Positions 8,115 through 50,500 of a stretch of DNA of 64,000 bases are shown piece by piece. The stretch covers positions 385 through 64,384 of the forward strand of contig AWSN01000001.1 in NCBI GenBank assembly GCA_000505065.1. Direction: 5' to 3'. The notes beneath the pieces were generated by a model that searched no databases, was not told the DNA's origin, and was given only the letters and a program-made list of their open reading frames with translations. The position numbers and the translations under genes were made by a program. Numbering within the stretch: the stretch's first letter is position 1; every line of letters starts with the position of its first letter. Origin of the DNA: Parcubacteria bacterium RAAC4_OD1_1 (GTDB lineage Bacteria > Patescibacteriota > Minisyncoccia > Phycocordibacterales > UBA9973).

Positions 8115-8146
8115 GAATATTCTTAAGAAAAAATAAGTTAGATAAA

Positions 8147-8656: not shown

Positions 8657-12078
<3,422 letters not shown>

Positions 12079-12195
12079 ATTAGGAAATTTGGAAATATTA
12101 TATTTGCGTCCGTCGCCCGACAATTTATTTGTTTAGGGTTATAGCATTCAGTTTTCAGGTATTATCAAATACTTGGATGTAAATTCCATTATTGT

Positions 12196-12306: not shown

Positions 12307-12342
12307 AGAGTAATGGAATTTTTTTATTGAATAAAAATAACA

Positions 12343-12384: not shown

Positions 12385-12436
12385 GACTTTTGTATTTTAT
12401 GGGTATATAAAGTAGATAAATTTAAAATATATTACC

Positions 12437-13067: not shown

Positions 13068-13844
13068 ATGTCATGGGCAAGCAAAAGAAAAACTTTATAT
13101 GTGAGTATTGTTTTGGGTATTATAATAATAATAATTTTTGCCTTTATTTATCCTGTTATATTTAAAGAGCCAACTTGTCGTGATGGAAAACAAAATGGAA
13201 GTGAGACGGGGATAGATTGTGGAGGTGCTTGTTCTTTGGTTTGCAAAGAAGAATCAAGAGATCCTGTCGTTTTGTGGAGTAGGGCTTTTCCTGTAATAGA
13301 TGGAAATTATAATTTTGTTGCTTTAGTTGAGAATAAAAATAGGGATGCATCTCTTATGGAGGTTTCTTATGAATTTAAAGCTTATGATTCTTCTAATAAA
13401 TTTATAGGAAGAAGAGAAGGGAAAACTTTTCTCCCACCTAATGAACGTTTTGCTATTTTTGAGCCGAGATTTAAGGCTCTCGATGGAGAGATTAAAACTG
13501 TTTCTTTTGAGTTTGTACCTCCTTATGTTTGGTTTAAAAAAGAACCCAAGATACAGTCTTTACCTATAAAGGTTGATAATATAACTCTTGAAAACGAATC
13601 AATTTCTCCACTTTTGCGTGCTCGAGTGGTCAATGATTCTAATTACGATTTACCTTCTTTTTCTGTTGTTGCTATAGTTTATAATATAGATGGCAATGCT
13701 ATCAACGTATCTAAAACTGTTAAAAATGGAATAAAAAGTGGGGAAAGTATAGAAGTTTATTTTACTTGGCCCGTACCTTTTTTAGAAACGGTAGTTTCAT
13801 TTGATGTTTTACCTTTGTTTGATCCTTTCACCTTACCTTTTTAA
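13068..13844 (+). CDS. hypothetical N-terminally membrane-anchored protein with Cys-rich segment (TCRDGKQNGSETGIDCGGACSLVCKEE)
   Basis: The track start at 12984 is TTG. The first ATG at 13068 gives MSWASKRKTLYVSIVLGIIIIIIFAFIYPVIF (signal-anchor). Confidence 0.45.
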   Translation: MSWASKRKTLYVSIVLGIIIIIIFAFIYPVIFKEPTCRDGKQNGSETGIDCGGACSLVCKEESRDPVVLWSRAFPVIDGNYNFVALVENKNRDASLMEVSYEFKAYDSSNKFIGRREGKTFLPPNERFAIFEPRFKALDGEIKTVSFEFVPPYVWFKKEPKIQSLPIKVDNITLENESISPLLRARVVNDSNYDLPSFSVVAIVYNIDGNAINVSKTVKNGIKSGESIEVYFTWPVPFLETVVSFDVLPLFDPFTLPF

Positions 13845-13848
13845 TAGA

Positions 13849-14988: not shown

Positions 14989-14997
14989 TTGATATTT

Positions 14998-15056
14998 CCA
15001 TAGGTCCGACCTATGGACAAAGTTTTAAAATAAAAGCCCATAGGTCGGACCTATGG
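14998..15056. repeat. REP-3 doublet: two inverted copies of palindrome CCATAGGTC(C/G)GACCTATGG (14998-15016 and 15038-15056) separated by 21 nt (REPIN-like)
   Basis: The two units are reverse complements of each other, differing only at the central base. The stem CCATAGG/CCTATGG is shared with REP-2 at 61 kb. Confidence 0.6.
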
Positions 15057-15098: not shown

Positions 15099-15929
15099 AT
15101 GCAAATTATTGATGGACGAAAAATTAGAGATGAGATTTTAGAAGACTTAAAAAAAGAAGTTGAAGAGCTTTCTTTTATGCCAATTTTCTGTGATATTTTA
15201 GTAGGGAGCGATTCAGTTTCAGCGTCTTATGTTCGTATAAAAGCAAAGACTGCTGAATCTATTGGTATAAAATTTAGAACCGCAGAATTTGATGAGAATA
15301 TAACCACTGAAGAGCTTATTGCTGAGATAGAGAATCTAAATAAAGTTCCTTATATGTGTGGAATTATTGTTCAGCTTCCTCTTCCTTATCATATAGATAG
15401 AGAAAGAGTTTTAAATGCCATTGATCCTAATTTAGATGTGGATTGTTTAGGAGAAATCGCCAACAATAAATTTTATAATGGGGAAGATGTGATGGGGTAC
15501 CCCACAGCGCTTTCTTGTATGCATATACTTGATAATTTAAATTTAGATTTAAAAGAAAAAAATATTTTAGTTTTAGGACAAGGAAAATTAGTTGGTCTTC
15601 CAGTCTCATATCTTTTAAAAGAAAGAAGTTTGAATGTGAATGTTGTAAATAGTAAAACCGAAAATACAGAAGAATTAATTAAAAATGCAGATATTATAAT
15701 TTCTGCTATTGGGCAAGGTGGTTATATAAAAGGTGATATGATTAAAAAAGATGTGATTATAGTAGATGCAGGGACTTCTGAAGACAATGGCTCTGTGGTG
15801 GGGGATGTGGATTTTCCATCTGTTTCTCTTTATGCATCTCATATTACTCCTACTCCTGGTGGAGTGGGGCCTATTACAGTTGCAATGCTCCTTAGGAATG
15901 TATTACAAGTAGCAAAGAATAAAAAATAA
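15099..15929 (+). CDS. folD: bifunctional methylenetetrahydrofolate dehydrogenase/methenyl-THF cyclohydrolase
   Basis: MQIIDGRKIRDEILEDLKKEVEEL...YVRIKAKTAESIGIKF...PLPYHIDRERVLNAIDPNLDVDCL...GGVGPITVAMLLRNV. Confidence 0.9.
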   Translation: MQIIDGRKIRDEILEDLKKEVEELSFMPIFCDILVGSDSVSASYVRIKAKTAESIGIKFRTAEFDENITTEELIAEIENLNKVPYMCGIIVQLPLPYHIDRERVLNAIDPNLDVDCLGEIANNKFYNGEDVMGYPTALSCMHILDNLNLDLKEKNILVLGQGKLVGLPVSYLLKERSLNVNVVNSKTENTEELIKNADIIISAIGQGGYIKGDMIKKDVIIVDAGTSEDNGSVVGDVDFPSVSLYASHITPTPGGVGPITVAMLLRNVLQVAKNKK

Positions 15930-25395: not shown

Positions 25396-25419
25396 TGAGC
25401 TAGGCAAGACCTAGCTCAG
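25396..25419. terminator. hairpin TGAGCTAGG-CAAGA-CCTAGCTCA between convergent-less genes
   Basis: Perfect 9-bp stem. The loop and top of the stem (AGGCAAGACCT) are identical to the hairpin at 28961-28985. Confidence 0.4.
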
Positions 25420-28937: not shown

Positions 28938-28960
28938 TTTTAACATTTAATTTTATTTAA

Positions 28961-28985
28961 CAGAGTAAGGCAAGACCTTACTCTG
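28961..28985 (+). terminator. rho-independent terminator CAGAGTAAGG-CAAGA-CCTTACTCTG + TTTTATTT
   Basis: Perfect 10-bp stem plus T-run. Followed by extended -10 (GGTGTTATAAT) for murI. Confidence 0.6.
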
Positions 28986-29026
28986 TTTTATTTAACTATA
29001 AAAAGGATAGGTGTTATAATACTTTT

Positions 29027-29818: not shown

Positions 29819-32803
29819 ATGACTAATAAAGATTTTGAAAAAAAGATTTCTCTACTTAACGAAAGACAGAGAGAAGCTGTAGAGGCTATCGAAGGCCCTG
29901 TGATGGTGGTGGCAGGCCCTGGAACTGGAAAGACAGAAATCCTTTCTCTTCGAATTGGAAATATTTTAAAAAATACTGACACTCCACCAGAATCTATTCT
30001 TTGTCTTACTTTTACAAATTCAGGTGTTTCTGCTATGAAAGAAAGGCTTGAAAGATATATTGGGAAAAGAGGTAGAGAAGTGACTATTTCTACATTTCAT
30101 GCTTTTTCAATATCTCTTATTGAAAAGTATTATGACTTGCTTGATTTTAAGAAAATTCCTGAATTACTTTCAGATGAAGACGCAATTTTCCTTGTGGATG
30201 ATATTCTAAACGAAAATGAATGGGAATATATAAGCCCACTTTCAAACAGGGTAACTTATTTTGGAGAATTAAAACACCTAGTTTCTAATTTAAAAAGAGA
30301 AAGAATTTCCGCAGATACTTTTATGTCTTATATTGATATGGATATTAATGATTTGAAAAATAATCCTGATAGTATATCGACAAGGGGAGATAGTAAGGGT
30401 GAATTTAAAAAAGAAGTTTTGAAAAAGATTGAATCATTAGAAAGAACTAAAGAAGTTGTAGAATTTTATAAGATTTATGAAGACAAGAAAAAGGCAAATT
30501 CTCTAATGGATTATGATGATGTGCTTGATTATGCAGTTTCTTTGGTAGAAAATTTCTCTAATGTGAGAGATGATATTCGTGAGGAGTATCTTTATATACT
30601 TGTAGATGAACATCAAGATTCTAGTGGAGTTCAAAATGATTTTATAAAAGCAATCTGGAGTGGTGTTGAATCCCCAAATATATTTGTGGTGGGGGATGAT
30701 CGCCAGCTTATATATGGATTTTCTGGAGCCAACATTTCTTATTTTGAAGATTTTTCACATATTTTTGGTAAACCAAAACTTATAGTTTTAAATGAAAATT
30801 ATCGCTCGACAGAGCAAATACTTTCTTTGGCTGATGATATTTTACAAAGTTCTATAGCGAAAGAAAAATTAAATAGTAACTTGGGTAAAGGGCAGAAGAT
30901 AAGACTCGGAGAATACTTTTATCCTCGAGATGAGATAATAAGTGCAGGAATTTATTTTAAAGAAAAAATAAATGAAGGAGTAGATCCTAATGAATGTGCG
31001 CTTCTTGTGCCTAGGAATAGCCATGTAAAAACTGCAATAGAGATACTTATAAATATGGGACTTCCTGTTGCGTCTGATTCAAATCTCTCACTTTTTTCTC
31101 AAGTAGAATCAGATTATTTAAAGAGGTTAATGAGAGTAATTACCAATCCTTTTGATTCTCTTTCACTTTCAAAAACTTTATTAGATGAAACAAGTGGAAT
31201 AGAAAAGCTAGAAGCTCTCACTTATTTAAAAGAAAATAAAGGAGAAGAATTGAATATTGATAAACTTTTGTCTTCTAAAAAAGAAGGATTATTTGGGGAG
31301 GATAATAGTATTTATCGTTTCGGTAAAAAATTAGAAAATTGGATTAATTCTTTGAAGGGAGAAAAATTGAGCAACATTGTAAATATTTTGGGTAATGATC
31401 TTCTTGTTAAAACTTCAAAAAATAATAATGAACTTTTAAATAGAGTAGAAATTGTGAGGAGTTTTATTCATTTAGCCATTATGTTTGAAGAAAAGAATAA
31501 GAAAATTGATTTATCTTCTTTTGTAGAATATTTAGATCGTTTGGAATCCTACAATACTCATATAGAGCTTGCAAAATTTGGTGGAGATGAGGGAATAAAA
31601 GTAATGACACTTCATAAATCAAAAGGTCTTGAATATGAAGCCGTTTGGATTGCTCATATGAATGAAGAGATACTTTTGTCTTCTAAAAAAGGAGGTTTTA
31701 CTTTACCAGAAAAAATTAAAGAGAGAATGTCATTACGGAATATAGAGGATGCAAAAAGAGAGCTTTATGTAGCTATTACAAGAGCAAAAAAAATGTGCAA
31801 TATCTCATACTCTCGTGAAGGATATAATGGTGGAGATCTTGAGTTGCTTTCAATAATTAGAGATTTGCCTGATGTACATTTTGATAAGATGTCAGCTAAA
31901 GAAAATGAAGATAAAATTCTTTCCCTTGGGGCAGATATTTATACCAAGTTTGATAGGATCAAATTTGAAGGTAATGAAATAGATGAAGTTAAAAATTTAG
32001 TAAAGAAAAATTATGAAAGTATGAGAGTTTCGGTTTCGATGCTTAATAATTTCTTTGAATGCCCTTGGAAGTGGTACTTTAGAAATTTTCTTAAACTTCC
32101 AGAAGAAAAGCCAATGCATTTAGCTTTAGGGACGGTGGTGCATGCTATGATTGAGTTTGTTTTGAAATCCGATGATTTTCCTAAAGAAAATGAACTGAAA
32201 TTAAAAATAGAAAAAGAATTTAAAAAAGAAGGCATAGAAAATAAAATTGATTTAAAAAGACTTTCAAAAAAGGCTGAAATTGCAATAACAGAATGGATAA
32301 ATAATTATTATAAAAAATTAAATAAAGATTATAAATCAGAAAGGTCTGTGTCTGTATCCTCAAAAGAATTTCCCAATCTTACAATGTATGGCAAGATTGA
32401 CCTTACAGAATATCTGGGTGATAGAGAAATAATGGTGACAGATTTTAAAACAGGAAATTCAAAAACTAAAAATATGATAGAGAAGATAAGTGAGGATGGA
32501 AGGATGTCTGACTTAATGCGTCAACTGGCAATGTATTCATATCTTTTAGAAGGGGATGAAAAGAATGTAAGAGTTGTAAAATCAAGACTGCTATTTCTAG
32601 AAGAAGATATAGAAAATAAAAATGCATTATACGAGACATTAATAGATCAAGAAAAAATTGATTTATTAAAGAGAGATATAAAGGATTACGATGAATCTTT
32701 GAAAAGTGGTGAATTTGTAAACAATGAATGTCATTTTAAGCCATACGGTTCTCTAAATAATGAATGTGAATACTGCAAACTCGCTAACCAACTATTTCAG
32801 TAA
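29819..32803 (+). CDS. UvrD/PcrA-type SF1 helicase fused to C-terminal RecB/Cas4-like PD-(D/E)xK nuclease with Cys cluster (AddA/AddB-like single polypeptide)
   Basis: Walker A AGPGTGKTE, DEHQD (motif II), ...VMTLHKSKGLEYEAVWIAH... (motif V/VI region). C-terminal ...YGKIDLTEYLGDREIMVTDFKTG... and CHFKPYGSLNNECEYC. Confidence 0.8.
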   Translation: MTNKDFEKKISLLNERQREAVEAIEGPVMVVAGPGTGKTEILSLRIGNILKNTDTPPESILCLTFTNSGVSAMKERLERYIGKRGREVTISTFHAFSISLIEKYYDLLDFKKIPELLSDEDAIFLVDDILNENEWEYISPLSNRVTYFGELKHLVSNLKRERISADTFMSYIDMDINDLKNNPDSISTRGDSKGEFKKEVLKKIESLERTKEVVEFYKIYEDKKKANSLMDYDDVLDYAVSLVENFSNVRDDIREEYLYILVDEHQDSSGVQNDFIKAIWSGVESPNIFVVGDDRQLIYGFSGANISYFEDFSHIFGKPKLIVLNENYRSTEQILSLADDILQSSIAKEKLNSNLGKGQKIRLGEYFYPRDEIISAGIYFKEKINEGVDPNECALLVPRNSHVKTAIEILINMGLPVASDSNLSLFSQVESDYLKRLMRVITNPFDSLSLSKTLLDETSGIEKLEALTYLKENKGEELNIDKLLSSKKEGLFGEDNSIYRFGKKLENWINSLKGEKLSNIVNILGNDLLVKTSKNNNELLNRVEIVRSFIHLAIMFEEKNKKIDLSSFVEYLDRLESYNTHIELAKFGGDEGIKVMTLHKSKGLEYEAVWIAHMNEEILLSSKKGGFTLPEKIKERMSLRNIEDAKRELYVAITRAKKMCNISYSREGYNGGDLELLSIIRDLPDVHFDKMSAKENEDKILSLGADIYTKFDRIKFEGNEIDEVKNLVKKNYESMRVSVSMLNNFFECPWKWYFRNFLKLPEEKPMHLALGTVVHAMIEFVLKSDDFPKENELKLKIEKEFKKEGIENKIDLKRLSKKAEIAITEWINNYYKKLNKDYKSERSVSVSSKEFPNLTMYGKIDLTEYLGDREIMVTDFKTGNSKTKNMIEKISEDGRMSDLMRQLAMYSYLLEGDEKNVRVVKSRLLFLEEDIENKNALYETLIDQEKIDLLKRDIKDYDESLKSGEFVNNECHFKPYGSLNNECEYCKLANQLFQ

Positions 32804-32813
32804 ACTTGGGAGA

Positions 32814-32834
32814 ACTTGGGAGCTCAGCTCCCAA
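32814..32834. repeat. REP-1 palindrome copy 2 (preceded by a 9-nt partial duplicate CTTGGGAGA at 32804-32812)
   Basis: Exact CTTGGGAGCTCAGCTCCCAAG, 30 nt upstream of the RAYT-1 start. Confidence 0.8.
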
Positions 32835-32864
32835 GTTAAATGAAATAAAATTTTTATATAAATT

Positions 32865-33527
32865 ATGAGAAATTTAAAATTTGCAAATAAAGAATATTAT
32901 CATATTTATAATAGAGGAACAGACAAAAGAGATATCTTTTTAGAGAAAGAAGATGTCTGGCGTTTTTATAAAAGTTTGATTTTACTGAATTCTGTAGAAA
33001 AGATAGGGAGTTTATATGAAAATTCATTTAAAAAGAAGAATAAAATTAAACTTGGGAGCTCAGCTCCCAAGTTAGTGAATATTGTGGCTTATTGTTTAAA
33101 TCAAAATCATTTTCATTTAATTTTAGAGCAAGTAGCTGATAATGGTATTTCAAAATTTATGCATCGCTTATCTACTGGATATACTAATTATTTTAATGAG
33201 AAAAATAAAAGGACCGGATCTTTATTTGAAGGGAGATATAAAGCTAAACATATATCTTCAAATGAATACTTACTTCATTTAGGGGTGTATGTGAATTTAA
33301 ATGATAGGGTACATAAAGGAATGAATAAGGAGTGGATGAAAGAATTACCCTTTTCTAGTTTTAATGAATATGTAAATAAAAATATAAAAGGTATATGTAA
33401 GAAAGATATAATTCTTGGTCAATTTAAAAATGAGAAAGATTTTATTAAATACTGTCTTGAAGTTTTGCCAATTATAAAAAAAAGAAAGGAAGATTTAAAA
33501 GAGTTCAAAAATATCTGTATAGAATAA
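32865..33527 (+). CDS. REP-associated tyrosine transposase (IS200-like, COG1943 Y1/HUH family), RAYT-1
   Basis: YHIYNRGTDKRDIFLEKEDVWRFYKSL..., ...VAYCLNQNHFHLIL (HUH), ...KRTGSLFEGRYKAKHISSNEYLLHLGVYVNLN... (catalytic Tyr region). Flanked by inverted REP-1 copies. Confidence 0.65.
   Translation: MRNLKFANKEYYHIYNRGTDKRDIFLEKEDVWRFYKSLILLNSVEKIGSLYENSFKKKNKIKLGSSAPKLVNIVAYCLNQNHFHLILEQVADNGISKFMHRLSTGYTNYFNEKNKRTGSLFEGRYKAKHISSNEYLLHLGVYVNLNDRVHKGMNKEWMKELPFSSFNEYVNKNIKGICKKDIILGQFKNEKDFIKYCLEVLPIIKKRKEDLKEFKNICIE
33051..33071. repeat. REP-1 palindrome copy 3, located in frame inside RAYT-1 (encodes KLGSSAPKL)
   Basis: Exact 21-mer. 21 nt is 7 codons, so the reading frame is preserved. The paralogue RAYT-2 lacks these residues at the aligned position. 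Confidence 0.8.
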
Positions 33528-33529
33528 TC

Positions 33530-33550
33530 ACTTGGGAGCTGAGCTCCCAA
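33530..33550. repeat. REP-1 palindrome copy 4, inverted orientation (CTTGGGAGCTGAGCTCCCAAG)
   Basis: Central CTGAG versus CTCAG shows it is the reverse complement of copies 1-3. Lies 3 nt after the RAYT-1 stop. Confidence 0.8.
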
Positions 33551-33606
33551 GTGAATGGATTTTGGTGTAAATTTGAAAATAAGTTTAAAAATGCTATATT
33601 ATAAAG

Positions 33607-34332: not shown

Positions 34333-36270
34333 ATGAAGATTAGTTACAATTGGCTTAAAAGATATATAAAAGAAATTCCAAAAGAAGAAGATTTAGTAAA
34401 TCTTATTACATTTAAAATTTGTGAATTGGAATCTGTGGAAAAATCACCAAATGGTGATACTGTTTTTGATATGAAAATTTTACCAGATAGGGCGCATGAT
34501 TTGCTTTCTCATTATGGTGTTGCCAAAGAAATTGCTGGGATTTTGGGGATAAATATAACAGAGATTGATCAGAATATTCATTCTGAGAGCACGAATATTT
34601 CCTTGCTAGGAAATAACTCTCTCCGGCCAAGTCGGCCTGCGCAAGGCTCTCCAGAAGAACATTCCGCTTCGCTTACTTCAGGATTTGAAGATTTAAAAAT
34701 TGACGTAGAATCTCCTTTATGTAGAAGATATATGGGGAGAATAATTAGAGATATTGAGATTGGAGAATCTCCTTTGTGGATGAAAGAATTGCTCGAAAGT
34801 GTGGGACAGAGAAGTATAAATAACATTGTAGATATAACAAATTTTATACTTTTTGACAAAGGACAACCAATTCATGCTTTTGATTTAGATAAACTAGAAA
34901 GTGAAAAATTAATAGTGAGAAATGCCAAAATTGGAGAGAAGATAAATTTGCTTTCATATGAAAATTTAGGTAAAGAAAGAATTGTAGAATTAAGTGAGAA
35001 TAATTTAATAATCGCAGATGAAAAAGACCCGGTGGCTATCGCCGGAGTAAAGGGTGGCACAAAAGCTGAAGTAGATAAAAATACTAAAAATATTTTGATA
35101 GAGGTGGCAAATTTTGATCCAGTCTCTGTAAGGAAAACTGCAAGAGGTTTTGGTATTCAGACCGATGCTGTAAAAAGATTTGAGAATGAAATTATTCCTG
35201 ATTGGTGTAGCCCTGTGATGAATGAAGTTTCTTCTTTAATATTGGAAACTTGTGAGAATGCAAAATTAGAAAATATTGTAGATTTATATAATGAGAAAAA
35301 AGAAGAGAGGAAAATCACTTTCAATAGAGGATACATATCTAAAGTTTTGGGAGTAGAAATTAAAAATGAAGAAATAGAGAAAATTTTAAAAAATTATAAT
35401 TACAAATATAACTTTTTGCACAAGTCCGACTTGTGCGAAGTTGATATGTGGGAGATGGTGGTGCCGAAAGAAAGATTAGATATTAGTGGTGGGCACGATA
35501 TGGCAGAAGAGATAGGTAGAGTTTATGGGTATGACAAAATAGCATCTGTTTTGCCTGATTTGAAACTAAATCATAAAGATAGTGATACTTGGACAAAAAT
35601 TTGTTTAGCTAAAAATAAACTTGTAGAAGATGGCTATAAAGAAGTAATGACTTATGCTTTGGTAGAAAAAGGAGAAGTCGAAATAATGGCTAGTGCTTCG
35701 GATAAAAATTTCTTACGTACAAATTTATTAGATGGACTTAATAAATCTTATGAATTAAATAGACTCAATGCTCCGTTTTTAGAAATGCCAGAAATTAAAA
35801 TTTTTGAAGTTGGGACTGTGTTTACAAAAGATGGAGAAGAAATGCGTGTGGCTTATGTTGATAAAAAAAATAAAATTGAGATGAGTTTGGATAAATTTAT
35901 AGAAAAAGAATTTTCATCAGATTTTTTGCGGGAAAAGGCCTTGCCTTTAGAATCCCCAAGGCAAGGCCTTGAGGAGCAAAAAACTTTCAAGCTCTGGAGT
36001 AATTATCCATTCATAACGCGTGATGTCGCTGTGTGGGTGTCTACAGAAAAAGATGGAGAAGAACTTTATAAAATATTAAAAGAAAATGGGGGAGAATTGC
36101 TTATAAAAGATCCATACCTTTTTGATAAATTTACAAAAGGTGAAAAAACTTCATATGCATATCGATTAATTTTTCAATCTTATGATAGAACTTTGAATGA
36201 TGATGAAATAAATGAAATTTTGAATAGAATTTATGAGAAAATTAAACTAAATGGATGGGAGATAAGATAA
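34333..36270 (+). CDS. pheT: phenylalanine--tRNA ligase beta subunit (short form, 645 aa)
   Basis: N-terminal MKISYNWLKRYI, B3/4 and B5-like regions. C-terminal FDV-domain ...ITRDVAVWV.... Contains three GC-rich palindromic islands in frame. Confidence 0.8.
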   Translation: MKISYNWLKRYIKEIPKEEDLVNLITFKICELESVEKSPNGDTVFDMKILPDRAHDLLSHYGVAKEIAGILGINITEIDQNIHSESTNISLLGNNSLRPSRPAQGSPEEHSASLTSGFEDLKIDVESPLCRRYMGRIIRDIEIGESPLWMKELLESVGQRSINNIVDITNFILFDKGQPIHAFDLDKLESEKLIVRNAKIGEKINLLSYENLGKERIVELSENNLIIADEKDPVAIAGVKGGTKAEVDKNTKNILIEVANFDPVSVRKTARGFGIQTDAVKRFENEIIPDWCSPVMNEVSSLILETCENAKLENIVDLYNEKKEERKITFNRGYISKVLGVEIKNEEIEKILKNYNYKYNFLHKSDLCEVDMWEMVVPKERLDISGGHDMAEEIGRVYGYDKIASVLPDLKLNHKDSDTWTKICLAKNKLVEDGYKEVMTYALVEKGEVEIMASASDKNFLRTNLLDGLNKSYELNRLNAPFLEMPEIKIFEVGTVFTKDGEEMRVAYVDKKNKIEMSLDKFIEKEFSSDFLREKALPLESPRQGLEEQKTFKLWSNYPFITRDVAVWVSTEKDGEELYKILKENGGELLIKDPYLFDKFTKGEKTSYAYRLIFQSYDRTLNDDEINEILNRIYEKIKLNGWEIR

Positions 36271-36350: not shown

Positions 36351-36368
36351 ATAATATAATTGTATTTT

Positions 36369-39300
36369 ATGTTCAAAAAAGATAACAAATTAAAAGAAAA
36401 AATAAGTAAAATATTGCCACGTTTTTCTGTGCATTATGTTGCTTATTCTGTCTCATTTCTTTTTGTTGTTTTTTCTATTATTCACATTGTGTCTGCTACG
36501 ACTCCAAACCCAGGGCATCCTTGGAGTGAACTTGGTGATGGAGTCTTTTCTGTGACTTACAATCAGACTGCTCCACGTACTTATACATTTCCAGATGCAA
36601 ACGCAACTGTACTTACTACCAATGCCCCTGTGACTGTGGCTCAGGGAGGGACAGGACTTACAACAATTGCATCAGGATCAATCCTTGGTGCTAATTTAGC
36701 AAACACACTTTCTGCCATCACTTCTACAACAGGGACAAAAGTTCTTACAAATACAGATGGAACAATTAGTTGGGAAAATGAGCCAGACTCTATGGTTTAC
36801 CCATCTGCTGGGATTGCGGTTTCTACTGGCTCTGCATGGGGGACATCGATCACATCATCATCTCTATTAATTTCAAATATTTCAGATGAAGTTGGAACCG
36901 GGTATTTAGTCTTTAATGATTCACCATCTTTCACAACAAAAATTACAACACCACTTATACTCGGTGGAACTTCTACTACACAAGATTTATCTTTCCAAAC
37001 AACATCTGGTATTGGAGCAACAGGTGCTGATATGCATTTCAAAGTAGGGAATAATGGAGCAACTGAAGCGATGACGATTTTGAATAATGGGTATGTGGGA
37101 ATCGGGACGACGGGGCCAAGCGATAAGTTATCTGTAATAGGAGGAAATATTGCAATAGATGCTAGTTCAAAAATATATAATGGATCAGCTGCGGATAGTG
37201 CCGGTATAAGATTTCCAAGTTCTGTTACAGATATTGCTGGTTATAATGGAATAATATTTAGATCTAGCACAGTCGGAATAGCATCACAGACAGAAAGAAT
37301 GAGAATAACAAATACTGGCTCCGTCGGTATTGGGACGACGGCACCTACAGCGGTACTTCACCTAAAAGCAGGAACTGCAACAGCGGGAACTGCACCGCTT
37401 AAATTAACAAGCGGAGTAAATTTAACAACAGGAGAAGCAGGGGCAATGGAATACGATGGTGTAGAATTATATTTCACACCAAGTGGAACAACAAGAGAAA
37501 CTATTGCATATCTTTCTGATCTAACATCTGGATTAACTGGATATGTACCTTATACTGGTGCAACTACAAATGTAGATTTAGGGGTTCATAACTTAACTGT
37601 TGATACAAATACTTTGTTTGTTGATTCTGTGAATCATAGGGTGGGAGTGGGGACGACGACGCCAACTTATCTTTTGACTTTGAAAAGTCCAGCTTCTAAT
37701 ACAATATCTTTTTCTCTTGAAAAAACAGGAGCAACAACAACACCAGCATTGACTGCTTACGAGGGTTCTTCAACTCAAGGAGTAATGAATTTTTATGATA
37801 ACGGAAGTGCAATAGGAGCAAAAATACAAGGATATGGTGATTCATATTTTAACGGCGGCAACGTCGGAATTGGAACGACCTCTCCATTCTCTCCTGCATC
37901 AATAAATAAAGTGTTGAATATATACAAAGATACTGGTAGTGTTGGTCTTAATTTATCCGTTGGTCTTGAAGATTACGAAATAGCAAACGTTGCTGGTGAT
38001 TTGTGGTTTATAGATGATAATTCTACAAAAATAGTTGTAAAGAATACATCTGGCAACCTCCTCATTAACACTACAACCGACAACGGAGTTGACAAATTGC
38101 AGGTTAACGGCTCATTATCCACAGTAGGAAATGTGAGAGTTAATAAAAGAACAGATGCTTATAGGTATGTTGATATTTATAGTGATAATGTATATGGGTA
38201 TATACAAGTTAAAAGAGGAGATACAGATGCTGTAAGAGAATTAATTTTACAACCATCTGGTAGTTCTGTCGGTATCGGCACCACATCTCCCACCGCTGTA
38301 CTTCACCTAAAAGCTGGTACAGCCACCGCAGGCACTGCACCACTTAAACTAACAAGCGGAGTAAATTTAACAACAGGAGAAGCAGGAGCAATGGAATACG
38401 ATGGGACGGATCTTTTCTTTACCCCATCTACCACAAGAGAGACAGTAGCATTCTTGAGCGACATTACGGCTTCTGCTCATAATCCCGTCACTCTAGGTAC
38501 AGCAAACGGTCTCTCACTATCTACTCAACAACTCTCTTTAGCTCTAGCTTCTACTTCTACAACCGGTGCTCTTTCTTCTACAGACTGGAATACATTTAAC
38601 AACAAACAAGCAACTCTAGTATCTGGAACAAACATTAAAACAATCAACAGTGCTTCACTTCTAGGTAGTGGAGATATCGCTTTACAAACTCCACTTGTCG
38701 CTGATACTGATTACTTAACTCCAGGGACAGCAAGTTCTACGTATGCTCTTGCAACTAATGGTACATATTATATAGAAGGAACGGGGACTGTCGCTGGGAC
38801 ATGGCTCGGAAGTCATCCAAATATAACTTCGTATTATGATGGTTTGACTGTTCGATACTACACACCAATTGCTGGAGCTGCTACAACAACTTTAAATATA
38901 AATAGTCTTGGGGCCAAAACTATTTATTATGCTGGTGCAACCAAACTCACTACTCATTACCCAGCTTTGTCTGTTATTACTTTGACTTATTCTGCAACAC
39001 AAAATGGAGGGTCTTGGTTTGTTCAACCTTTTTATGCTGATGGGAATGAATCTTATACAGTTAGATGGAGCTCTACTCTTCAAGCCGGAGCTCCTATCTA
39101 TGATTACAAATTGGTAATGTTTGGAGCAAGTGATGGAAAAGTTTATCCTTTAACATTAGAAACAGGAACGGCTACAACGAAAACAGTTTCTAGTGTTGAA
39201 TTCAATCCAATGTCACCAGTTTTGTATTATGGTTCTACTACTGATATTGCTCTTGATGGAACATCTGCTTCTTATTGGTATGAAGGTGTGACTTCTGCTA

Positions 39301-42300
39301 ACTTACATTACACTGCAAACCAAGCTTCTGGGTGGACGGCATATACACCAATTTATATTAAAGGAACGATAACTTCTAGTGGAAATTTCTTACTAGCTGG
39401 AGCTGGAACTGTTGGCGGTACGGCTTTCTTAACTCAAACTCTTCCGACTACAGAAGATGGATTTGTTTATATGCTTTTGGGTCATACTTACAATACAACC
39501 ACTGCCTTTAGATTGACAACCAGCCATCCGATTTATGAATATAAAGGAGGAAAATTAAGACCATATACAAATGAAGCAGATACGTTAGATAGTGTCCTTG
39601 TAAGAGGAGCAACAACAGATGAGACCCCAACATTTTCAAATGCAACTTATTCAGCATTGTTTACGGGGGGAAATGTCGGGATTGGGACGGCGACACCAGG
39701 GGCGAAATTGCACATATCATCTGCAAGTGATAGTGATATTTTACTTGAAACGACAGGTACGAGCACAGGAGCAAGATTAAGATTAAAAAATTCTGCGAGT
39801 GAGTGGTATTTATACAACAATCAAGCAAATGGAATTTTGAAGTTTTATGCTGGAGCAGATAAATGGACTTTGGATACGAGTGGTAATGTTATACAAACAG
39901 GAAATTTGATAGTTCAGGGAACTGGGAACACAACAATAGCTGGCTCCGTCGGGATAGGCACCACCACTCCCACCGCTGTACTTCACCTAAAAGCTGGAAC
40001 TGCGACCGCAGGCACTGCTCCACTTAAATTAACAAGTGGAATAAACTTAACAACACCAGAAGCAGGAGCAATGGAATACAATGGAACAAGTCTATTCTTC
40101 TCTCCATCTACAACAAGATATCAAATACCATTTGCAACAGGAACAAATACAATATTCTTCACAACAACAGGAGCAACTAATGTCACACTTCCTACAACAG
40201 GAACACTTGCAACAACTGCAAATATTCCTACCGCTGCTAACCCATCAGCTACAATCGGACTCACAGCTGTAAATGGATCCGCTACAACATTTATGCGTTC
40301 TGATTCTGCTCCAGCTCTATCTCAAGCAATCGTTCCTACATGGACAGGAATACATACATTTAGTGCAATCCCTGCCTTCAACGGAGGAACATCTGGCTCC
40401 ACTGCTCCATTTAGTGTTGATTCAAATACTTTAGTTTCAAATTTGAATGCTGATTTGTTGGATGGACATGATACTGCATACTTCCAAACAGCACTTACGA
40501 ATCCTGTCACAGGGACGGGGACACTAAATTATGTTCCAAAGTTTACAGCTACAGGAACTACAATAGGCAACTCCTTAATTTTTGATAATGGAACGAATGT
40601 GGGGATTGGGACGACGACATTAACTGAAAAATTAACCATATCAGGAAATATAGATTTACCCGCTACTAATAATTGGAGGTATATTAAAAATTCTGCAACT
40701 AATGGTGGGCTTAGAATTGGTACAGGTAATAGTTCGGGGGTCTATACAGATGGTATAGAGGTTAGTTCTGGTGGCAGTTATGTTAAATTAAATCATAATA
40801 CGACAGTTACTGGAAATTTATATACTACAGGCAACGTCGGCATAGGGACGACGGCACCATTGAGTGCTCTAAATGTTGCAGGACTCACAGGAATTAATTG
40901 GGTAACTGCGGGCAATTCATATGGACTTGTTACTATTGGTACGCAAGGCACAATGGGAGGTGCTTTGTGGGTCAATACACCATCACTAAACGCCAGTAAT
41001 GCATCAGGTTTGGGAATAACTGGTTCATATGATGCCTCAAAAGTTTCTGTAGTTAATGTTAATGCGTATGGAGTGTATGCTGCTACCTACGGCTCAGCAT
41101 TAGCATTTTCAACTTCTAACGGAACTGCTTTGTCAGAGTGGATGAGAATTGATAAAAACGGCAACGTCGGGATTGGGACGACAAACCCATCAGCAAGATT
41201 AACTATTCAAACTGCGAATGCATCTTCTACTGGTGGTATTCGATTATTAGGAATAACTACTCCTACTGATATAAGTTATTGGGGGGAAACAGAATTGGCG
41301 ATGCAGTATGGTGGTGTTTATAAAAATGTAATTAATAATAATGGGGTTTCTTATTTTAATGGAGGTAACGTAGGAATTGGAACGACCTCACCAACAGCAG
41401 CTCTTCATTTAAAAGCCGGCACCGCCACCGTAGGCACTGCACCACTTAAACTAACCGCAGGTACAAACCTCACTACCGCTGAAGCAGGGGCAATGGAATA
41501 CGATGGGACAGATTTATTCTTTACTCCATCTACAACTAGAGAAACAGTAGCATTTATGAGCGATCTAACATCTGGGTATATCCCTTACACAGGAGGAACT
41601 TCAAATGTAGATTTAGGAGCTCATAATCTTACAGTAGATACAAATACATTATTTGTAGATAGTGTGAATCATAGGGTGGGGGTGGGGACTACTTCACCTG
41701 CTTACAAACTTGATGTGAATGGAGTTATGAGATTATCAACAACCACAGGTGATGTCTTTAGACTAGAAGGAAGCACCACTAATGGATATACAGATTTATT
41801 ATTTACTGGTAATGGAAATAATAATTATATATATAGTTTTGGTAGTTCTTATACTACAAATGGTAGATATGTTGGTGGCTCACAACTTATTGATGCTACT
41901 GGTTCTGGTGGTTTAGGTTTGGCAGCTTCAGCAACAGCAGGGACTATAAGATTTTATACTAATGCAAATAATGAGAGAATGAGGATAGATTCTTCTGGCA
42001 ACGTTGGTATTGGGACTACAACGCCAGACGGAAAATTAAACATAAGTAATGGTAGTATGAATACTTCTCGTGAGTCTGTAAACCATTATAGAGATGTAAT
42101 ACATTATAGTGGTGCTGCTTCTGTTACAGGAACGATGCAGATTACTATGCCATCAACAAAATTATGGTCTAATACAATGATGACAGTAACTATTAAGGGG
42201 TATAATTATAGTGCCCATGGAGCATGGGAAGCTGTTATTTCTGGATACAATTATAGCTCTACTTCACAGTGGTATAATTATACCGCTGAAATTAAAGGTA

Positions 42301-45300
42301 AAGCTCCATTTACTTCTATTAGACTTGCAAGTAATGGCACGAGTAATGTTATTTTACTTGGCACAACAACTACAGTTTGGGTTTATCCAAAAATAGAAGT
42401 CACTGATGTGATTACAGGCTATAGTAGTAATACAGGTTGGGGAGAAGGTTGGTCTATTACTCCAATTATAGATGAAGCTGCAATTGTAAATGCTGTTACT
42501 CCAACTATTCCGTATTTCTTAAATAATGTAGGCAATCTTGGGATTGGAACGACGACGCCGGGTACAAAACTTGATGTTGTGGGTGGTGCAATACGAACAG
42601 ACAATCAATTAATTTCTACAATTGTTACGGGGACATCTCCACTTTCTGTTGCTTCAACAACTTTAGTTTCTAATTTGAATGCAGATTTGTTGGATGGATT
42701 GCATGCTTCATCGTTTGTTACTTCTAGTAGTATTTCAGGAACACAAAATTATGTTTCTAAATTTAATGCCGCAGGGACGGGAGTAGTTAATTCACAGATT
42801 TTTGATAATGGAACGAATGTGGGGATTGGGACGACCAATCCTGATAGTTTTCTTGATGTAAGTGGTAGTGCTTCGGGAGGTAAAAGTCTTAGATTAAGAA
42901 GTGGTGATTCAGCAGGTACTCCTGCAGATTCTACTCAAATTCTTTTTTCTTATGGAGGAACTAATGAGTATTCTCATAATATAAGAACAAGACATGACTC
43001 TGGAGCTGCGGCTAACAATGCAATCGATTTTTATACATGGAATTATGGAGTAGATACATCTACTACAACAGGAACAAAACACATAATGACATTAGGTGGA
43101 ACAGGTAATGTCGGGATTGGGACGACGAGTCCACAGGCAAAATTGCACGTTTCAGGGAATTCATTTTTAGGTACATATTATGCAAACAATACAGCTATTA
43201 CTGATGCAGAAGTTATTACTGCTGGAGAAAATAAAATACTTAGTAATTTAACAAGAGGTAACTTAGATATAACAATGACATCTGTTCTTAATCCTGCTCC
43301 TGACTATGGTGCTTCTTTAACTTTTACTACTAATGCAGGTAATTATGGTACCGGTTATTATTATGTTGGTGGAGCTATTAAAACAGGTAGAACGAGTGGT
43401 GCTAATCAAAACCAAGCGCAATACATGTCGTTTTATACTAATAATGGTACTTCTTTGAGTGAAAAATTAAGAATTACACATGATGGCAACGTCGGAATTG
43501 GGACGACAAGTCCAGAAAGTATTTTACATCTTAGTAAGAGTGCCGCTGGCACATCAGGTCCTATTTTATTCTTAGATAATCCTTCTGCTTCTACTCTTGG
43601 TAGTTCTAGTGATATTAATTTTGCAACTTGGTCTGGAGAGTCTGCTACTACACCTGGAGCAAAAATAAGTTTAGTTAACACAGCGGCTGGAAGTGGTGCT
43701 AATGCTTTTACTTTTTATACTAAAAATACAAGTGGAGTTGTCGCAGAAAGAGTTAGGTTTGATTCACAGGGTAATGTCGGAATTGGAACGACGGGGCCGG
43801 GTACAAAACTTGATGTTGTGGGTGGTGCAATACGAACAGACAATCAATTAATTTCTACAATTGCTACGGGGACATCTCCACTTTCTGTTGCTTCAACAAC
43901 TTTAGTTTCTAATTTGAATGCTGATTTGTTGGATGGGATTAGTTCTACAAGTTTATTTAATAATATGGGACAAAATCATTCAGCACAAACAGATTTTAAT
44001 TCTATAACAGATTTTGGTACAAGATTTGTACAAGGTATTACAAATGGACCAGGGACAGGTTCATCACAATTTTATAGTTTGAATCTTGGCTTGGGAAATG
44101 ATTATGCATTTAGTTCATATGCAATGCAAATTTCAATTCCTAGATATACTGGAACTGATAAATATATATCATTTAGAACAAGAGAAGCTGGAGTATGGGG
44201 AACTTGGTCAAAAATAAGTGCAGGATATGCAGATACAGCAGGAAATGCAGATACTGTGGATGGATTACATGCGAGTGCATTCCAAACAGCACTTACGAAT
44301 CCTGTCACAGGGACGGGGACATTAAATTATATTCCAAAGTTTACAGCTACAGGATCTACAATAGGCAACTCCTTAATTTTTGATAATGGAACGAATGTGG
44401 GGATTGGCACAGCAACACCTAATCAACAACTTGAAATTACTAAAAACTTTAGATTGCCCGCCACCACTTATAATGCTGGTTCTCCCTATGGAATAATTTA
44501 TAAAGATGGGAATAGGTTTATTCACGACTTTAATTACGGAAATAATGGGACAGTGACGACTGCTGGACAGAATACTTTTATAGGTGTTAATGCTGGGAAT
44601 TTGACTATGGGTAGTACTGCTACATCAGTTTCCCATTCGTCATATAATACAGCGGTAGGTTATGTTTCTCTCTATTCCAACACCACAGGATACGCTAACT
44701 CTGCTATGGGGCATTATTCTCTTTTTGCTAATACCACAGGATACGCTAACTCTGCACAGGGGGTTAATTCTCTCTACTCCAACACTGGAGGATACAATAA
44801 CTCTGCTGTGGGATATTATTCTCTCTATTCCAACACTACAGGAAACCACAACTCCGCAATGGGTGTTAATTCTCTCTACTCCAATACTACAGGCTGGTAC
44901 AACTCAGCATTAGGTTATCAAGCAGGAAGATATATTGCTGATGGAACAACAGGTAGAACTACAGGTAACAACGGACTATATCTCGGATACAATTCTAAAG
45001 CTAGTGCAGATGGGACAACTAATGAAATAGTGATAGGGTATAATACTATAGGTGCTGGAAGTAATACCGCTGTCTATGGTAATACTTCAATGACTAAGCA
45101 TATATTTAGTAATGGTAACGTCGGTATTGGGACGACAAGTCCGGGGGCTATTTTATCTTTAGGTAGTTCTGCTGCTTATCAAAAGCTTTTAGTTTTTGAA
45201 TCTGGAAATACAAAAGCTGGCTTCGGACTTACTCCAACTGGAGATTTTAGATCTTTTACTCCAACAGGGACTACTTTGTCTTTTGGTCATATGTCTACTA

Positions 45301-47558: not shown

Positions 47559-50500
47559 ATGTTTTATCAGAATAAAAAATTAAAAAGAAAAATATTTAAA
47601 AATATAAAAATTGGTATTTTTGTATTTTCTTTTATGTTTACTTCTTTGTTTTCTTATTTACCTAATTTAAATACAAATGAAGTAAAAGTTGCCGAAGCTT
47701 ATGTAGGTACAAGAGTAAAAACTGTTGAATTCTTTGCTGGGCAGTATGCTTCTAGTACACTTGCTAATGCTGGAGTACAGAATAATTTTGAAGTACAGAA
47801 TGTAGAAATATCAGAAACTAATGTAGATATTATAAATTCTTATATTGAATTTTCTGCTCAAGTAGGGGCCAATGCTTCTACTACCATTACAGAAGGACTT
47901 CTTTATTTTAGTGCTTGTGCTGGTACTTCTTGTACACCTGCTACTCCTGCTATGGTTATGAACACAGCAGGTTTAGGGACAAGTACAGGAGAGTCTCAAA
48001 CAATAAGACTTCGAACTAATATTGCTACTGCTGGTACTGATACGGATATTTTTTCTACTTTCACAGGAGGGGCTTTTTCTTTTCAAGTTGGGTATTGTAT
48101 AGATGGAGCATCAGGAACTGATGGATCGACTTGTAATGGGACAGTTGCAGCTAGTATCCAAAGTGCTAATGCTAAACTTGTGACAACTTATACTTATGAT
48201 GACACATCTACATATCAAACTAATACAGTTATTTATCCACTTGAGTCTAACACCACAGGGCCTGTCGGGTCAAAGACTATAGTCCAAGCATCTTGTACTA
48301 TGGACTCAAACTGTCCTAAATTTAGTTATAATACGAACATCCCAGAATTATCATCTCAAGTATCTCAATTTTTTCATACTCAATTCTTTGGTGGATCAGT
48401 CTCAACGACAACTGATCATCAATTTCAAGCACAAGTAGATGGTAATACTTCTGGAAGTACGATGTATTTTGAGCAAGCACTTTCTGATAATGGGGGAGCC
48501 ATGGATTATCTTGTCAGTGGGCTTGATGGGTATGAGAACAATACAGCTCAACAGCTTGAAACTCGTGTGAATGGCAATGCTTATGTGCTTGGTGGAGAAA
48601 ATTATGTGACATACAAATACCCCAATAGCGCAGGAGTAAAAACAAAAACAATAGTGCTCCCAGTAGGAGAGGTGCAGACAGTCGGGTCTATTACAAAGTC
48701 ATCTCTTGTGGGTCCAACTGTAAAATTTCCTGAAACTGGAGTAAGTATCAAAAAGGCTTGGTTTAGAGTACACACTAGTGCTGGAGGGCAGACTACAGCA
48801 TCTAATTTAAATATTACAACAAAAGTAGGTTCTAATACAGAATCTTTAGCAACGGCGTACTCTATCGGCGGTACGCTTGAGGGTGTTTCTGATGATGGGT
48901 ATTTTATTCATATGATTCCTTCATCAGATTATTCCCACTTAGAAACTGCCAATATAGATACAGGAATTCCTGTCCAAATGTCGGCTCAATGGTCTACTCC
49001 ATATGGAGCAGTGTCTGGTGAACTTGTGATCACATATACTTATACAGGAGATACAAATGGATTTAATACTACACAAAGACTTTTTGCAGGTCAAAGTACA
49101 ACAACAGCATCAACAACATTTTCTGCTCCTACTGGGGCTGTTGGAGGAATTGTGGATCCATATATATATCAAGGTATAGGGAATGCATCTATCCTTGGGG
49201 TTTCTCTTAAAATGGATGGTAAAGATACATCCGCAACTGCTAATCAAACAGTGGGTGCTAATATGTCAGTTTACCCTAATGCCTGTACAAGTTCAGATAC
49301 TTTTAATTCAACCACACTTACAGATACACAAATCACAAAAGTTTCTCTCTTTAAAGAGATAACAGGTGTTGTGACAAACAACAATACAACGACTTACACA
49401 CCTTGTTATAATAGTAGTCAAGCAACTATCTTTAATGGAACAGTAGCCATAACTACGATGGTAGATTTTAGAGAAGTTGTTGCTTCTGGTGGTACTGAAA
49501 CTACAATAAATGTAGGAGGTATTGATTATAAGGTTCACACATTTCTTTCATCTGGAACTTTTACTGTCACTAGTGGTGGTGGTATTGAGTATTTGGTTGT
49601 TGGAGGAGGGGGAGGTACTGAAAATAATAATGCTGCTGTTGGTGGTGGTGGAGCTGGTGGTGTATTAACAGGATCAACTTCAACAGATGCAGGTTCTTAT
49701 TCTATAACTGTAGGAAGTGGTGGTCTTGGGTATTTTGGTGGAACACCAGGACAAGGGCAACAAGGAGGATCTAGTAGTATTGGTTCTTTAGTTGTTGCGA
49801 CAGGTGGAGGAGCATCCAATAGTTTACCAAACGGGGGATCAGGTGCTGGAGGTACTGCTTATTCATCTTCATATGGTCCTGGAGGTACTGGAATTGCAGG
49901 ACAAGGATATCCTGGTGGTGCAGCTTCGGCAACACGTAGAGCCGGTGGAGGAGGTGGTGCTTCACAAGCTGGAGGAAATTCAGGAATAAATAACTATGGT
50001 GGTGATGGTGGTGATGGAATACAAAGTAGTATAAATGGAACTGCTACATACTATGGTGGTGGAGGTGGTGGTGCTGGATATACAACTAACGGTCAGGGTG
50101 ATGGTGGTTTGGGTGGTGGTGCAAATGGATCATATGGTGCACCAACTTCAAATCAAAATGGAACTCCTAATACTGGTGGTGGAGGAGGTGGTTCAAAACT
50201 TTTTAGTTCTACTGTTAGATCTGGTTCTGGTGGTTCAGGTATTGTCATAATAAGGTATCCTATGAGTACAGAACCTTCTTTTTCTCAACTAGATTATAGA
50301 TTTTTTGAGAATGAAGATGGAAATTTTGTTTATTCATCTTTAGGAAGTCAAAATACTAATGTCTCACTTTCTCAATCTGGGGAAGACTTTAGATTAAGAA
50401 TGCTTTTAAAAATAGAAAATTATAATATGACCGTTGAAAAGAGTCACTTTAAATTACAATTTTCAGAGAAGTCTGGTTCTTGTGATACTTCTTTTGTTGG

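Follow-up and report, generated by a model that had tools for sequence, protein, structure and literature searches.

In-frame copies of a cognate palindrome in a RAYT-type gene of Patescibacteria

In a 64,000-nt stretch of DNA from Parcubacteria bacterium RAAC4_OD1_1 (in the following called the window), a gene resembling those for REP-associated tyrosine transposases (RAYT; REP, repetitive extragenic palindromic sequence) is flanked by two copies of a palindrome, and a further exact copy lies in frame within its open reading frame (ORF). The arrangement of this gene, RAYT-1, and its palindrome, REP-1, raises the question of whether the internal copy is a recent arrival, as a previous sequence-only reading had proposed, or an inherited part of the gene, and what keeps it there. 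From the comparison with homologous loci (167 fetched, labelled L001 etc.), we consider RAYT-1 and its own 23-nt palindrome a unit of the REPtron type, in which the in-frame copy is inherited, the copies evolve in concert and the encoded peptide follows the DNA. We assign this interpretation a probability of about 0.6.

RAYT-1 and the copies of its palindrome

REP-1 is a perfect 23-nt palindrome, ACTTGGGAGCT-C/G-AGCTCCCAAGT, with four copies in the window, located 5′ of, within and 3′ of the ORF 32865-33527 and after the 5S rRNA gene. Its 21-mer CTTGGGAGCTCAGCTCCCAAG matches exactly on the forward strand at 12353-12373, 32815-32835 and 33051-33071 and on the reverse strand at 33531-33551, where the centre base read on the forward strand is G; the chance expectation is 0 matches (100 shuffles of the sequence). 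The positions given in the sequence-only reading were right to within 1 nt, its 32814 and 33530 being the starts of the 23-mer ACTTGGG...CCCAAGT. The flanking copies are flipped relative to each other because their sole difference is the centre base, C versus G. The elements at the locus and the dispersed copy are as follows.

32804-32813, forward strand: 10-nt half-copy of the REP-1 arm, ACTTGGGAGA, directly abutting the upstream REP-1 copy
32814-32836, forward strand: upstream REP-1 copy with centre C, perfect over 23 nt and separated by 28 nt from the RAYT-1 ATG
32865-33527, forward strand: RAYT-1 ORF, 220 amino acids, predicted Y1/HUH enzyme with H82/H84 (33108-33116), Y142 (33288-33290), N146 and H150
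33050-33072, forward strand: internal REP-1 copy (site A), 21-nt core 33051-33071 forming codons 63-69 in the alphaB-beta2 loop
33530-33552, reverse strand: downstream REP-1 copy, flipped (centre G on the forward strand), starting 3 nt past the stop codon, terminator-like
12341-12385, forward strand: dispersed REP-1 copy within a palindrome with a 22-bp stem, 36 nt after the 5S rRNA gene, resembling a bidirectional terminator

The third copy is thus exact and in frame, as had been read from the sequence: its core consists of the seven whole codons L63 G64 S65 S66 A67 P68 K69 and lies 12 residues before H82-F-H84. The half-copy ACTTGGGAGA, not mentioned in that reading, directly follows the stop of the preceding UvrD/PD-(D/E)XK helicase gene, in which helicase domains were found, and is not present in the orthologous loci L001 and L161-L163.

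The RAYT-1 gene has a GC content of 33%, and its product is identical to DIC38_02625 of Candidatus Nomurabacteria (693,530-bp contig). The protein matches the Pfam family PF01797 (Y1_Tnp) with 32.2 bits at a gathering cut-off of 23 and the NCBIfam equivalog NF047646 (REP_Tyr_transpos) with 22.3 bits, under the 80-bit cut-off. In an alignment of 35 relatives with 53-79% identity (alignment A1), H82, H84, Y142 and N146 are invariant, as is the SS at 164-165, and H150 is nearly so. The AlphaFold2 model from 35 sequences (pLDDT 87.7) has the RRM-like four-stranded sheet fold of Y1 transposases; residues 60-70, comprising the palindrome-encoded peptide, form a low-confidence coil in it, which is the outcome of a structure check that the earlier reading had suggested. 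Foldseek against the PDB returned 4ER8, the E. coli TnpA-REP bound to a REP hairpin, as the best match (E 9.5e-7), and the top 25 matches were all Y1 transposases, with those of IS200/IS605 elements ranking behind 4ER8; a profile search of PDB sequences with RAYT-1 gave no match and no usable alignment to 4ER8. RAYT-1 is therefore predicted to be a Y1/HUH enzyme similar to TnpA-REP, which might bind or cleave REP-1. The Y1/HUH fold, the top match 4ER8 and the flipped flanking copies of its own palindrome support the REP-RAYT (REPtron) type of arrangement that the sequence had suggested.

Hairpins in homologous genes and their concerted change

A database search with RAYT-1 yielded 3660 relatives, from which we took 80 loci in species-representative genomes of diverse Patescibacteria. 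We scored the best 25-nt symmetric window per position, with a threshold of at least 10 of 12 symmetric pairs. In RAYT-1-type loci hairpins occur at four positions: upstream (U, 3-40 nt before the ATG), at the site used by RAYT-1 (site A, ORF nt ~170-210), directly behind the segment coding for the catalytic helix and H150 (site C, nt ~445-500) and at or just past the stop codon (D). The threshold was reached in 66/80 genes at U, 48/80 at site A, 44/80 at site C and 62/80 at D, compared to 5/160 control windows in the same genes (p = 3e-29). The positions are stereotyped, with a spacing of ~200-280 nt. The 66 upstream and 62 downstream copies share the foot consensus (C)ACTTGG-N11-CCAAGT(G), and cognate palindromes flank the gene in most of 160 homologous loci.

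These hairpins are concentrated on the gene itself. Perfect GC-rich palindromes reach 10.8 per kb in the 60-nt flanks and 1.41 per kb inside the homologue ORFs, where 71 of 72 fall within two 110-nt site windows, but only 0.154 per kb in the remaining 1.09 Mb. Cognate dispersed copies numbered 23 in the 1.09 Mb around the homologues and were mostly intergenic, by which counts the REPs here appear to be low-copy repeats centred on the gene. The 64-kb window likewise holds one dispersed copy of REP-1 and one of REP-2, the palindrome of its second RAYT gene. None of the 167 fetched loci, among them 20.7 kb surrounding a third paralogue, contains REP-1 in its exact form.

If a mobile REP-1 had recently inserted into RAYT-1 alone, with a gain of seven residues lacking in other members, the 100% identity of the internal and upstream copies would be explained, and REP-type hairpins do enter other genes in frame (pheT, a holB-like ORF and a membrane-protein ORF, see below). 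However, LGSSAP is the consensus at site A in alignment A1, that is, of the Patescibacterial subfamily, and in 48 of 80 homologues the hairpin shares both position and frame with that of RAYT-1. The syntenic orthologues (73-78% identity) all have it, with lineage-specific changes common to the flanking copies. RAYT-2, the single paralogue of RAYT-1 found by tblastn of the window, shows no gap at this position but a segment of equal length and unrelated sequence. The view that LGSSAP(K) is a private 7-aa insertion was thus contradicted by homologues sharing these residues, which the sequence-only reading had itself named as evidence against it, and the statement that the insertion is absent from the paralogue was wrong because RAYT-2 has no 7-aa gap there. 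A recent private insertion is refuted by this comparison and hardly conceivable. The internal copy is inherited and family-wide, and homologues share residues of the LGSSAPK type because they carry the hairpin.

The syntenic orthologues of RAYT-1 are found before pheS-pheT and mostly behind a helicase gene (L001, L161-L163). The gene is single-copy and vertically inherited among these close relatives. Synteny throughout the subfamily had to be rejected, since the pheS context is kept only in L001 and L161-L163 and is lost in more distant members. As a separate observation, a UvrD/PD-(D/E)XK helicase-nuclease gene adjoins the RAYT-1-type gene in L001, L017, L021, L027 and the window (29819-32803), persisting in some distant loci without other synteny; either chance or a functional link could account for it.

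The sequences of the hairpins change together within a gene. The 7-nt variable arm is identical in 57% of within-gene hairpin pairs compared to 1.8% of between-locus pairs, and pairs of an internal with a flanking copy show the same pattern. Each lineage-specific change in the syntenic orthologues is present in all three copies, the arm reading GGGAGC in the window, AGGAGC in L001, GAGGAGC in L161 and GGAAGC in L163. Since all copies share these changes, the peptide LGSSAPK turns into LRSSAPK, LRSSTPK or LGSSASK. More widely, the site-A peptides include LGSSAPK, LRSSAPK, LGGETPK, LRGLASK, LGGRTPK, CGGPTAT and LRSPAPE, while the stem stays perfect. The variants in alignment A1 are complementary codon pairs (L/K, F/K, G/P, R/P, S/A, S/T). 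Among 57 site-A hairpins, which were pre-selected for symmetry (at least 9/12), changes occur on both sides in 9/10 stem pairs, and cells with a double change number 102 compared to 30.7 +/- 4.3 in shuffles (0/500 shuffles reach 102). The palindromic DNA leads, and the encoded peptide follows.

Conservation at the protein level would imply the reverse, with LGSSAPK as a functional motif whose coding sequence is palindromic by coincidence and gave rise to the flanking REPs. K69 precedes the first HUH histidine by 13 residues, the offset of R46 in E. coli TnpA-REP, which contacts the hairpin backbone; this correspondence comes from counting residues, because the PDB profile searches gave no usable alignment. 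Homologues without a hairpin also have a Lys/Arg-rich loop at the site-A position. On the other hand, the peptide varies widely while the stem remains perfect, changes arrive as complementary codon pairs, and the same sequence stands at the non-coding flanks. We regard an origin from a protein motif as very improbable.

The second gene of the window, RAYT-2, is only 39% identical to RAYT-1 and is accompanied by a palindrome of its own on either side of the gene and in frame within it, which the sequence-only reading had overlooked. This palindrome, REP-2, is TAGCCATAGGC-AAG/CTT-GCCTATGGCTA and differs from REP-1; its feet, TTAG...CTAA, merely resemble the "double foot".

61580-62263, forward strand: RAYT-2 ORF, 227 amino acids, 39% identical to RAYT-1, motifs PNHFH and YIHLNP
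61530-61554, reverse strand: upstream REP-2 copy, TAGCCATAGGC-CTT-GCCTATGGCTA, ~26 nt before the start, overlapping the -35 region of a putative TATAAT promoter
61852-61876, forward strand: REP-2 copy in frame within the ORF (site B), its peptide SSHRQGLW directly following the HUH strand
62276-62300, forward strand: downstream REP-2 copy, 13 nt past the RAYT-2 stop codon
60990-61014, reverse strand: extra REP-2 copy just after gyrB

RAYT-2 has no Pfam match at E <= 1e-3 and scores 41.7 bits for REP_Tyr_transpos, under the cut-off of 80. The site-B segment is a 9-aa insertion relative to RAYT-1, and residues 94-99 in the beta3-alphaC loop of the AlphaFold2 model have a pLDDT below 50. The site-B copy is conserved in the orthologues L164-L166, and RAYT-2 orthologues are located between gyrB/NUDIX and thrS. 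Relatives of RAYT-2 have equivalents of site B encoding SHRSDLW, SSHRQGLW or SPRQGLG, all specified by palindromes, and more distant ones use a site-A-like position. The TATAAT box lies 17 nt after a TTGCCT within the upstream REP-2 copy, and the two probably form the RAYT-2 promoter. Co-resident paralogues keep distinct hairpins, as do REP-1 and REP-2 and also the genes at L052.

Reading frame, promoter and possible functions

The reading frame acts as a filter on the internal copies. Between the conserved feet, the core is always CTTGG + 11 nt + CCAAG, that is, 21 nt or seven codons, and one frame is common to 89/92 internal hairpins. As centre codon, the internal copies have TCA or TTA in 44 cases and TGA or TAA in 0, whereas flanking copies have TCA/TTA in 37 and TGA/TAA in 33 cases (p = 4e-9). 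This accounts for the C and G orientations noted in the sequence-only reading: flanking copies flip freely, whereas internal copies can survive only when stop-free. Sites A and B both lie in low-pLDDT coil of the AlphaFold2 models. The ORF thus admits a 21-nt core, in one frame, in the stop-free orientation only, and in a disordered surface loop.

Such a filter would also act on neutral hitch-hikers. A RAYT that prefers to act in cis would hit its own gene most often, only in-frame hits in permissive loops would survive, and the internal copies would be without function; this overlaps largely with the REPtron interpretation, the sole difference being whether the copies have a function. A 21-nt core stays in frame anywhere it lands, all three sites are loops, many homologues have decayed hairpins or none, and some genes contain mixed hairpin types. 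REPs also lie within unrelated genes, in the window and other loci as well as in the literature (PMC3733652), and Quentin et al. deemed such insertions peripheral to the active site (PMC6006769). However, the enrichment is very large, with 1.41 per kb in RAYT ORFs compared to a handful of genic hairpins in 1.09 Mb of mostly coding DNA, and subfamilies just 40-50% identical share both the frame and the two or three sites. Purely neutral internal copies therefore appear rather unlikely to us, though a serious possibility.

The upstream hairpin has a particular relation to promoter-like sequences. A TAnnnT hexamer follows exactly 2 nt past the hairpin in 39/66 upstream copies, compared to 2/154 at the other three positions. 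In 36/39 of these, the hexamer 17 nt upstream of TAnnnT is TTGGnn, drawn from the hairpin foot, and in 31/39 the ATG follows 6-9 nt after TAnnnT. From these motifs, the typical family member would have a leaderless promoter whose -35 and -10 elements enclose the complete hairpin, and binding of this hairpin would therefore also repress the gene.

An alternative is that the palindromes are operators in duplex DNA for a dimeric regulator, be it the C-terminal helices of the RAYT or another protein. The upstream site would then occlude the promoter, and the internal and downstream sites would be auxiliary operators acting by looping or as a roadblock, comparable to lac O2 in lacZ. Perfect 23-bp palindromes, the gap between -35 and -10 filled by the upstream copy in 39/66 loci, stereotyped positions at ~200-280 nt spacing and the identity of copies within a gene would all fit. 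However, known relatives bind single-stranded hairpins and not duplex DNA (PMC3479197), Pfam finds no helix-turn-helix (HTH) or other duplex-binding domain in RAYT-1 or RAYT-2, the RAYT-1 of the window has no promoter overlap, and dispersed copies follow unrelated genes such as that for 5S rRNA. Operators of this kind are unlikely.

Finally, the hairpin might work in the mRNA, affecting translation or stability like the stem-loops of IS200 tnpA mRNA, so that the RNA structure would be conserved. The stem is strong for an AT-rich gene (33% GC), the downstream copy is terminator-like, and the decayed internal hairpin of the third paralogue (L167) retains its pairing via two G.T (G.U) pairs on the sense strand. 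In imperfect stems, however, G.T is not enriched relative to A.C or other mismatches, flanking copies change orientation freely, and in most loci the upstream copy precedes the putative transcription start. The palindrome matched no Rfam family; at gathering thresholds, Rfam identified only 23S rRNA, 5S rRNA and the L10 leader in the window. The lack of a G.T excess and the location of the upstream copy before the putative transcription start point to a constraint on DNA and not RNA. On the Rfam result and the absent G.T excess, we rejected an RNA element as the principal explanation; it appears improbable.

We therefore return to the REPtron-type unit. The in-frame copy occupies one of a set of stereotyped positions for the cognate hairpin that Patescibacterial homologues have in common: upstream, site A (as in RAYT-1), site B (as in RAYT-2), site C and the stop codon. 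The copies would most likely be homogenised while the DNA is single-stranded at the replication fork, be it through hairpin-templated repair (template switching) or through the encoded enzyme, which would cleave and rejoin its own hairpins in cis. The hairpin embedded in the promoter might repress the gene, and the internal copies might serve as additional cis sites in this autoregulation.

Several observations weigh against this interpretation. Two or three hairpin types occur within one gene in L010, L035 and L037, which better fits replacement by other REP families than simple conversion within the gene. Concerted change is not demonstrable for RAYT-2 because all four of its orthologues (79-93% identity) carry an identical REP-2. 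Identity of the copies could also be explained by selection for recognition by one protein and not by a homogenising mechanism. The covariation set was chosen for symmetry, so the percentage of paired positions is inflated, though the diversity of pair types is unaffected. RAYT-1 itself deviates from the typical promoter arrangement: 28 nt separate its hairpin from the ATG, and a promoter-like site was not called at this location.

As a speculative extension, which we hold to be improbable, the arrangement may be self-referential. [quoted passage not shown] Any alteration of the palindrome would then affect the substrate, the recognition loop and, via the copy in the promoter, the expression of the gene at once. 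If so, this would be a built-in route for the co-diversification of enzymes and repeats into the many private REP/RAYT pairs of Patescibacteria.

Further palindromes and the relation to known systems

The genome contains at least a third RAYT-like gene (L167 10001-10672, P0179 = DIC38_00110) that is 65% identical to RAYT-2, the paralogues being just 39-65% identical to one another. It is flanked by its own palindrome, GCATAGGTC.GACCTATGC, and its internal site-B copy is decayed, with both mismatches being G.T on the sense strand. The hairpin of this locus resembles another palindrome in the window, (T)CCATAGGTC-C/G-GACCTATGG(A), which forms a flipped pair at 14997-15017 and 15038-15056, 20 nt apart. 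This pair is REPIN-like and intergenic, between the ORFs 13801-14988 and 15099-15929. Two further intergenic hairpins, 25396-25418 (TGAGCTAGGCAAGACCTAGCTCA) and 28959-28987 (AACAGAGTAAGGCAAGACCTTACTCTGTT), have the AGG-CAAGA-CCT top seen in RAYT-2-type relatives and probably represent REP families whose RAYT paralogues are located elsewhere in this genome.

Palindromes also occur in frame in other genes. The pheT gene (34333-36270) carries REP-like hairpins that are lacking in some orthologues. The one at 35418-35436, GCACAAGTCCGACTTGTGC, encodes HKSDLC within a 7-aa insertion relative to L161-L163. At ~35935-35970, a doublet with a 13-bp stem, AAGGCCTTGCCTT...AAGGCAAGGCCTT, encodes ...ALPLESPRQGLEE... 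and is found in L163 but not in L161 and L162. Similar peptides, SHRSDLC and SPRQGL, are encoded at site B in relatives of RAYT-2. There is an additional lineage-specific 26-aa insertion in pheT at 34594-34683, and two very large ORFs follow directly 3′ of the gene, 36360-47501 (3713 aa) and 47559-51293 (1244 aa). In other loci, CTTGG-type hairpins lie in frame in a holB-like ORF (L054 3548-3570, LEAELPS) and in a putative membrane protein (L053 4805-4833, LGGLASK).

The dispersed REP-1 copy, as noted from the sequence before, follows the rRNA: its core at 12353 lies 48 nt past the 5S rRNA gene (12198-12305), in a terminator-like hairpin that is followed by a T run. A longer perfect palindrome, CAAAACCCCAT-REP-ATGGGGTTTTG (12341-12385), encloses it. 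Locus-specific stem extensions of up to 22 bp are found in hairpins elsewhere, even in coding sequence (18 bp at site A of L029), which suggests either a process that makes hairpin flanks symmetric or insertion into pre-existing hairpins. In the same region, the 23S rRNA match spans 8651-12086, that is, 3436 nt compared to the 2925-nt model, leaving ~500 nt of insertions in the gene, and no 16S rRNA gene adjoins it within the window. Between rplL and the 23S rRNA gene (6490-8650) there are only overlapping ORFs on both strands and the GC-rich hairpins 7293-7317 and 8144-8178.

In-frame REPs inside tnpA-REP genes have been reported for TnpA-Y1 subclass 2.4 in Cyanobacteria and Bacteroidetes (Quentin et al. 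2018, PMC6006769). The in-frame copy, called unusual in the sequence-only reading, is therefore not new in kind. As in subclass 2.4 (group 4 RAYTs of Bertels), a Y1/HUH gene is flanked by cognate REPs and contains REPs in frame; the in-frame location there corresponds to site B of RAYT-2, an 8-aa insertion at the end of alphaB matches the position of site A, and the HuH motif NH[IFV]H fits NHFH. Differences are that, by the motif table of that paper, WQ and YIxNNP are replaced here by FE/FQ and YVNLND/YIHLNP, that REP-1 lacks the GT[AG]G 5′ foot, and that additional sites are in use, one ahead of the HUH motif and one behind the catalytic helix. The paper does not mention Patescibacteria, and its consulted passages do not describe concerted evolution, an orientation and frame filter or promoter embedding for subclass 2.4.

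By motifs, the best match is subclass 2.1, or TIRYT (Bertels group 1), with NH[YF]H, FQ, Y[IV]HLNP and an SS tail (PMC6006769). The counterparts here are NHFH, LFQG as the consensus of alignment A1 (RAYT-1 itself has LFEG), YIHLNP in RAYT-2 and S164-S165. The class 2 motif Y---NP is present in RAYT-2 as YIHLNP, and the RAYT-1 subfamily has YVNLND/YVNLNx, with the N but no P. The proteins here have 220-227 aa compared to a median of 238 in subclass 2.1. That subclass is reported to lack REP-like sequences, whereas here short perfect palindromes flank and enter the gene; the C-terminal HTH-like domain of subclass 2.1 (DnaA_C/HTH_23/HTH_28) was detected by Pfam in neither RAYT-1 nor RAYT-2.

Structurally, the best match is E. 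coli TnpA-REP (YafM/RayT; PDB 4ER8; Messing et al. 2012). Its Y115/N119/H123 (PMC3479197) have the same i, i+4, i+8 spacing as Y142/N146/H150 of RAYT-1, and both are single-copy genes bracketed by cognate hairpins. The E. coli REPs number hundreds of copies, with a 5′ GTAG and a bulged stem. Those described here have perfect stems, no GTAG and ~1 dispersed copy per 30-60 kb; neither 5′ GT[AG]G nor CGTC appears at the hairpin foot in the consensus of the 66 upstream and 62 downstream copies. Classical REP families have more than 100 copies per genome.

IS200/IS605 elements are alike in the size of the unit (~720-740 bp for the gene with subterminal hairpins), the Y1/HUH fold and a hairpin near the promoter or 5′ end. 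They differ in having a Y---Q motif, with N in place of Q here, and distinct left and right ends, where RAYT-1 has the same palindrome at both; near-identical multiple gene copies are also missing, the window containing only divergent paralogues. A mobile IS200-like element was rejected because the close orthologues are syntenic. Intragenic REPs and the Rickettsia palindromic elements (RPE) are known as well (Di Nocera et al. 2013, PMC3733652). RPE resemble the pheT hairpins of the window as palindromic repeats in frame within functional genes, but they are longer and have no dedicated enzyme, whereas here the gene hit most by far is that of the presumed cognate enzyme.

In the literature on RAYT in Patescibacteria, Parcubacteria or the candidate phyla radiation, our searches found nothing relevant. 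A term search of Nunvar 2010, Bertels 2017 and Corneloup 2021 gave no mention of REPs inside RAYT genes. Within the limited literature covered, we found no paper on 2.1-like proteins with REPs, Patescibacterial hosts, three sites, concerted evolution, the filter or promoter embedding. What sets these loci apart from the known case is the Patescibacterial host, the subclass-2.1-like motifs, the apparently low-copy REPs and the additional insertion sites.

The finding extends REPtrons and intragenic REPs to subclass-2.1-like proteins, a class reported to be without REPs (PMC6006769), and both to the minimal genomes of the candidate phyla radiation. It also calls for caution in annotation, as conserved peptides such as LGSSAPK and SHRSDLW, here and in pheT, are by-products of DNA palindromes. 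How RAYTs and REPs stay matched during diversification is an open question, for which the Patescibacterial genes offer a compact natural system: a gene bracketed by two of its own palindromes, with up to two more inside and apparently very few elsewhere, many diverged pairs of enzyme and repeat, and concerted change that is visible even between syntenic orthologues. Co-evolution, cis-preference and a possible autoregulation are directly testable in this system with few oligonucleotides and reporter constructs.

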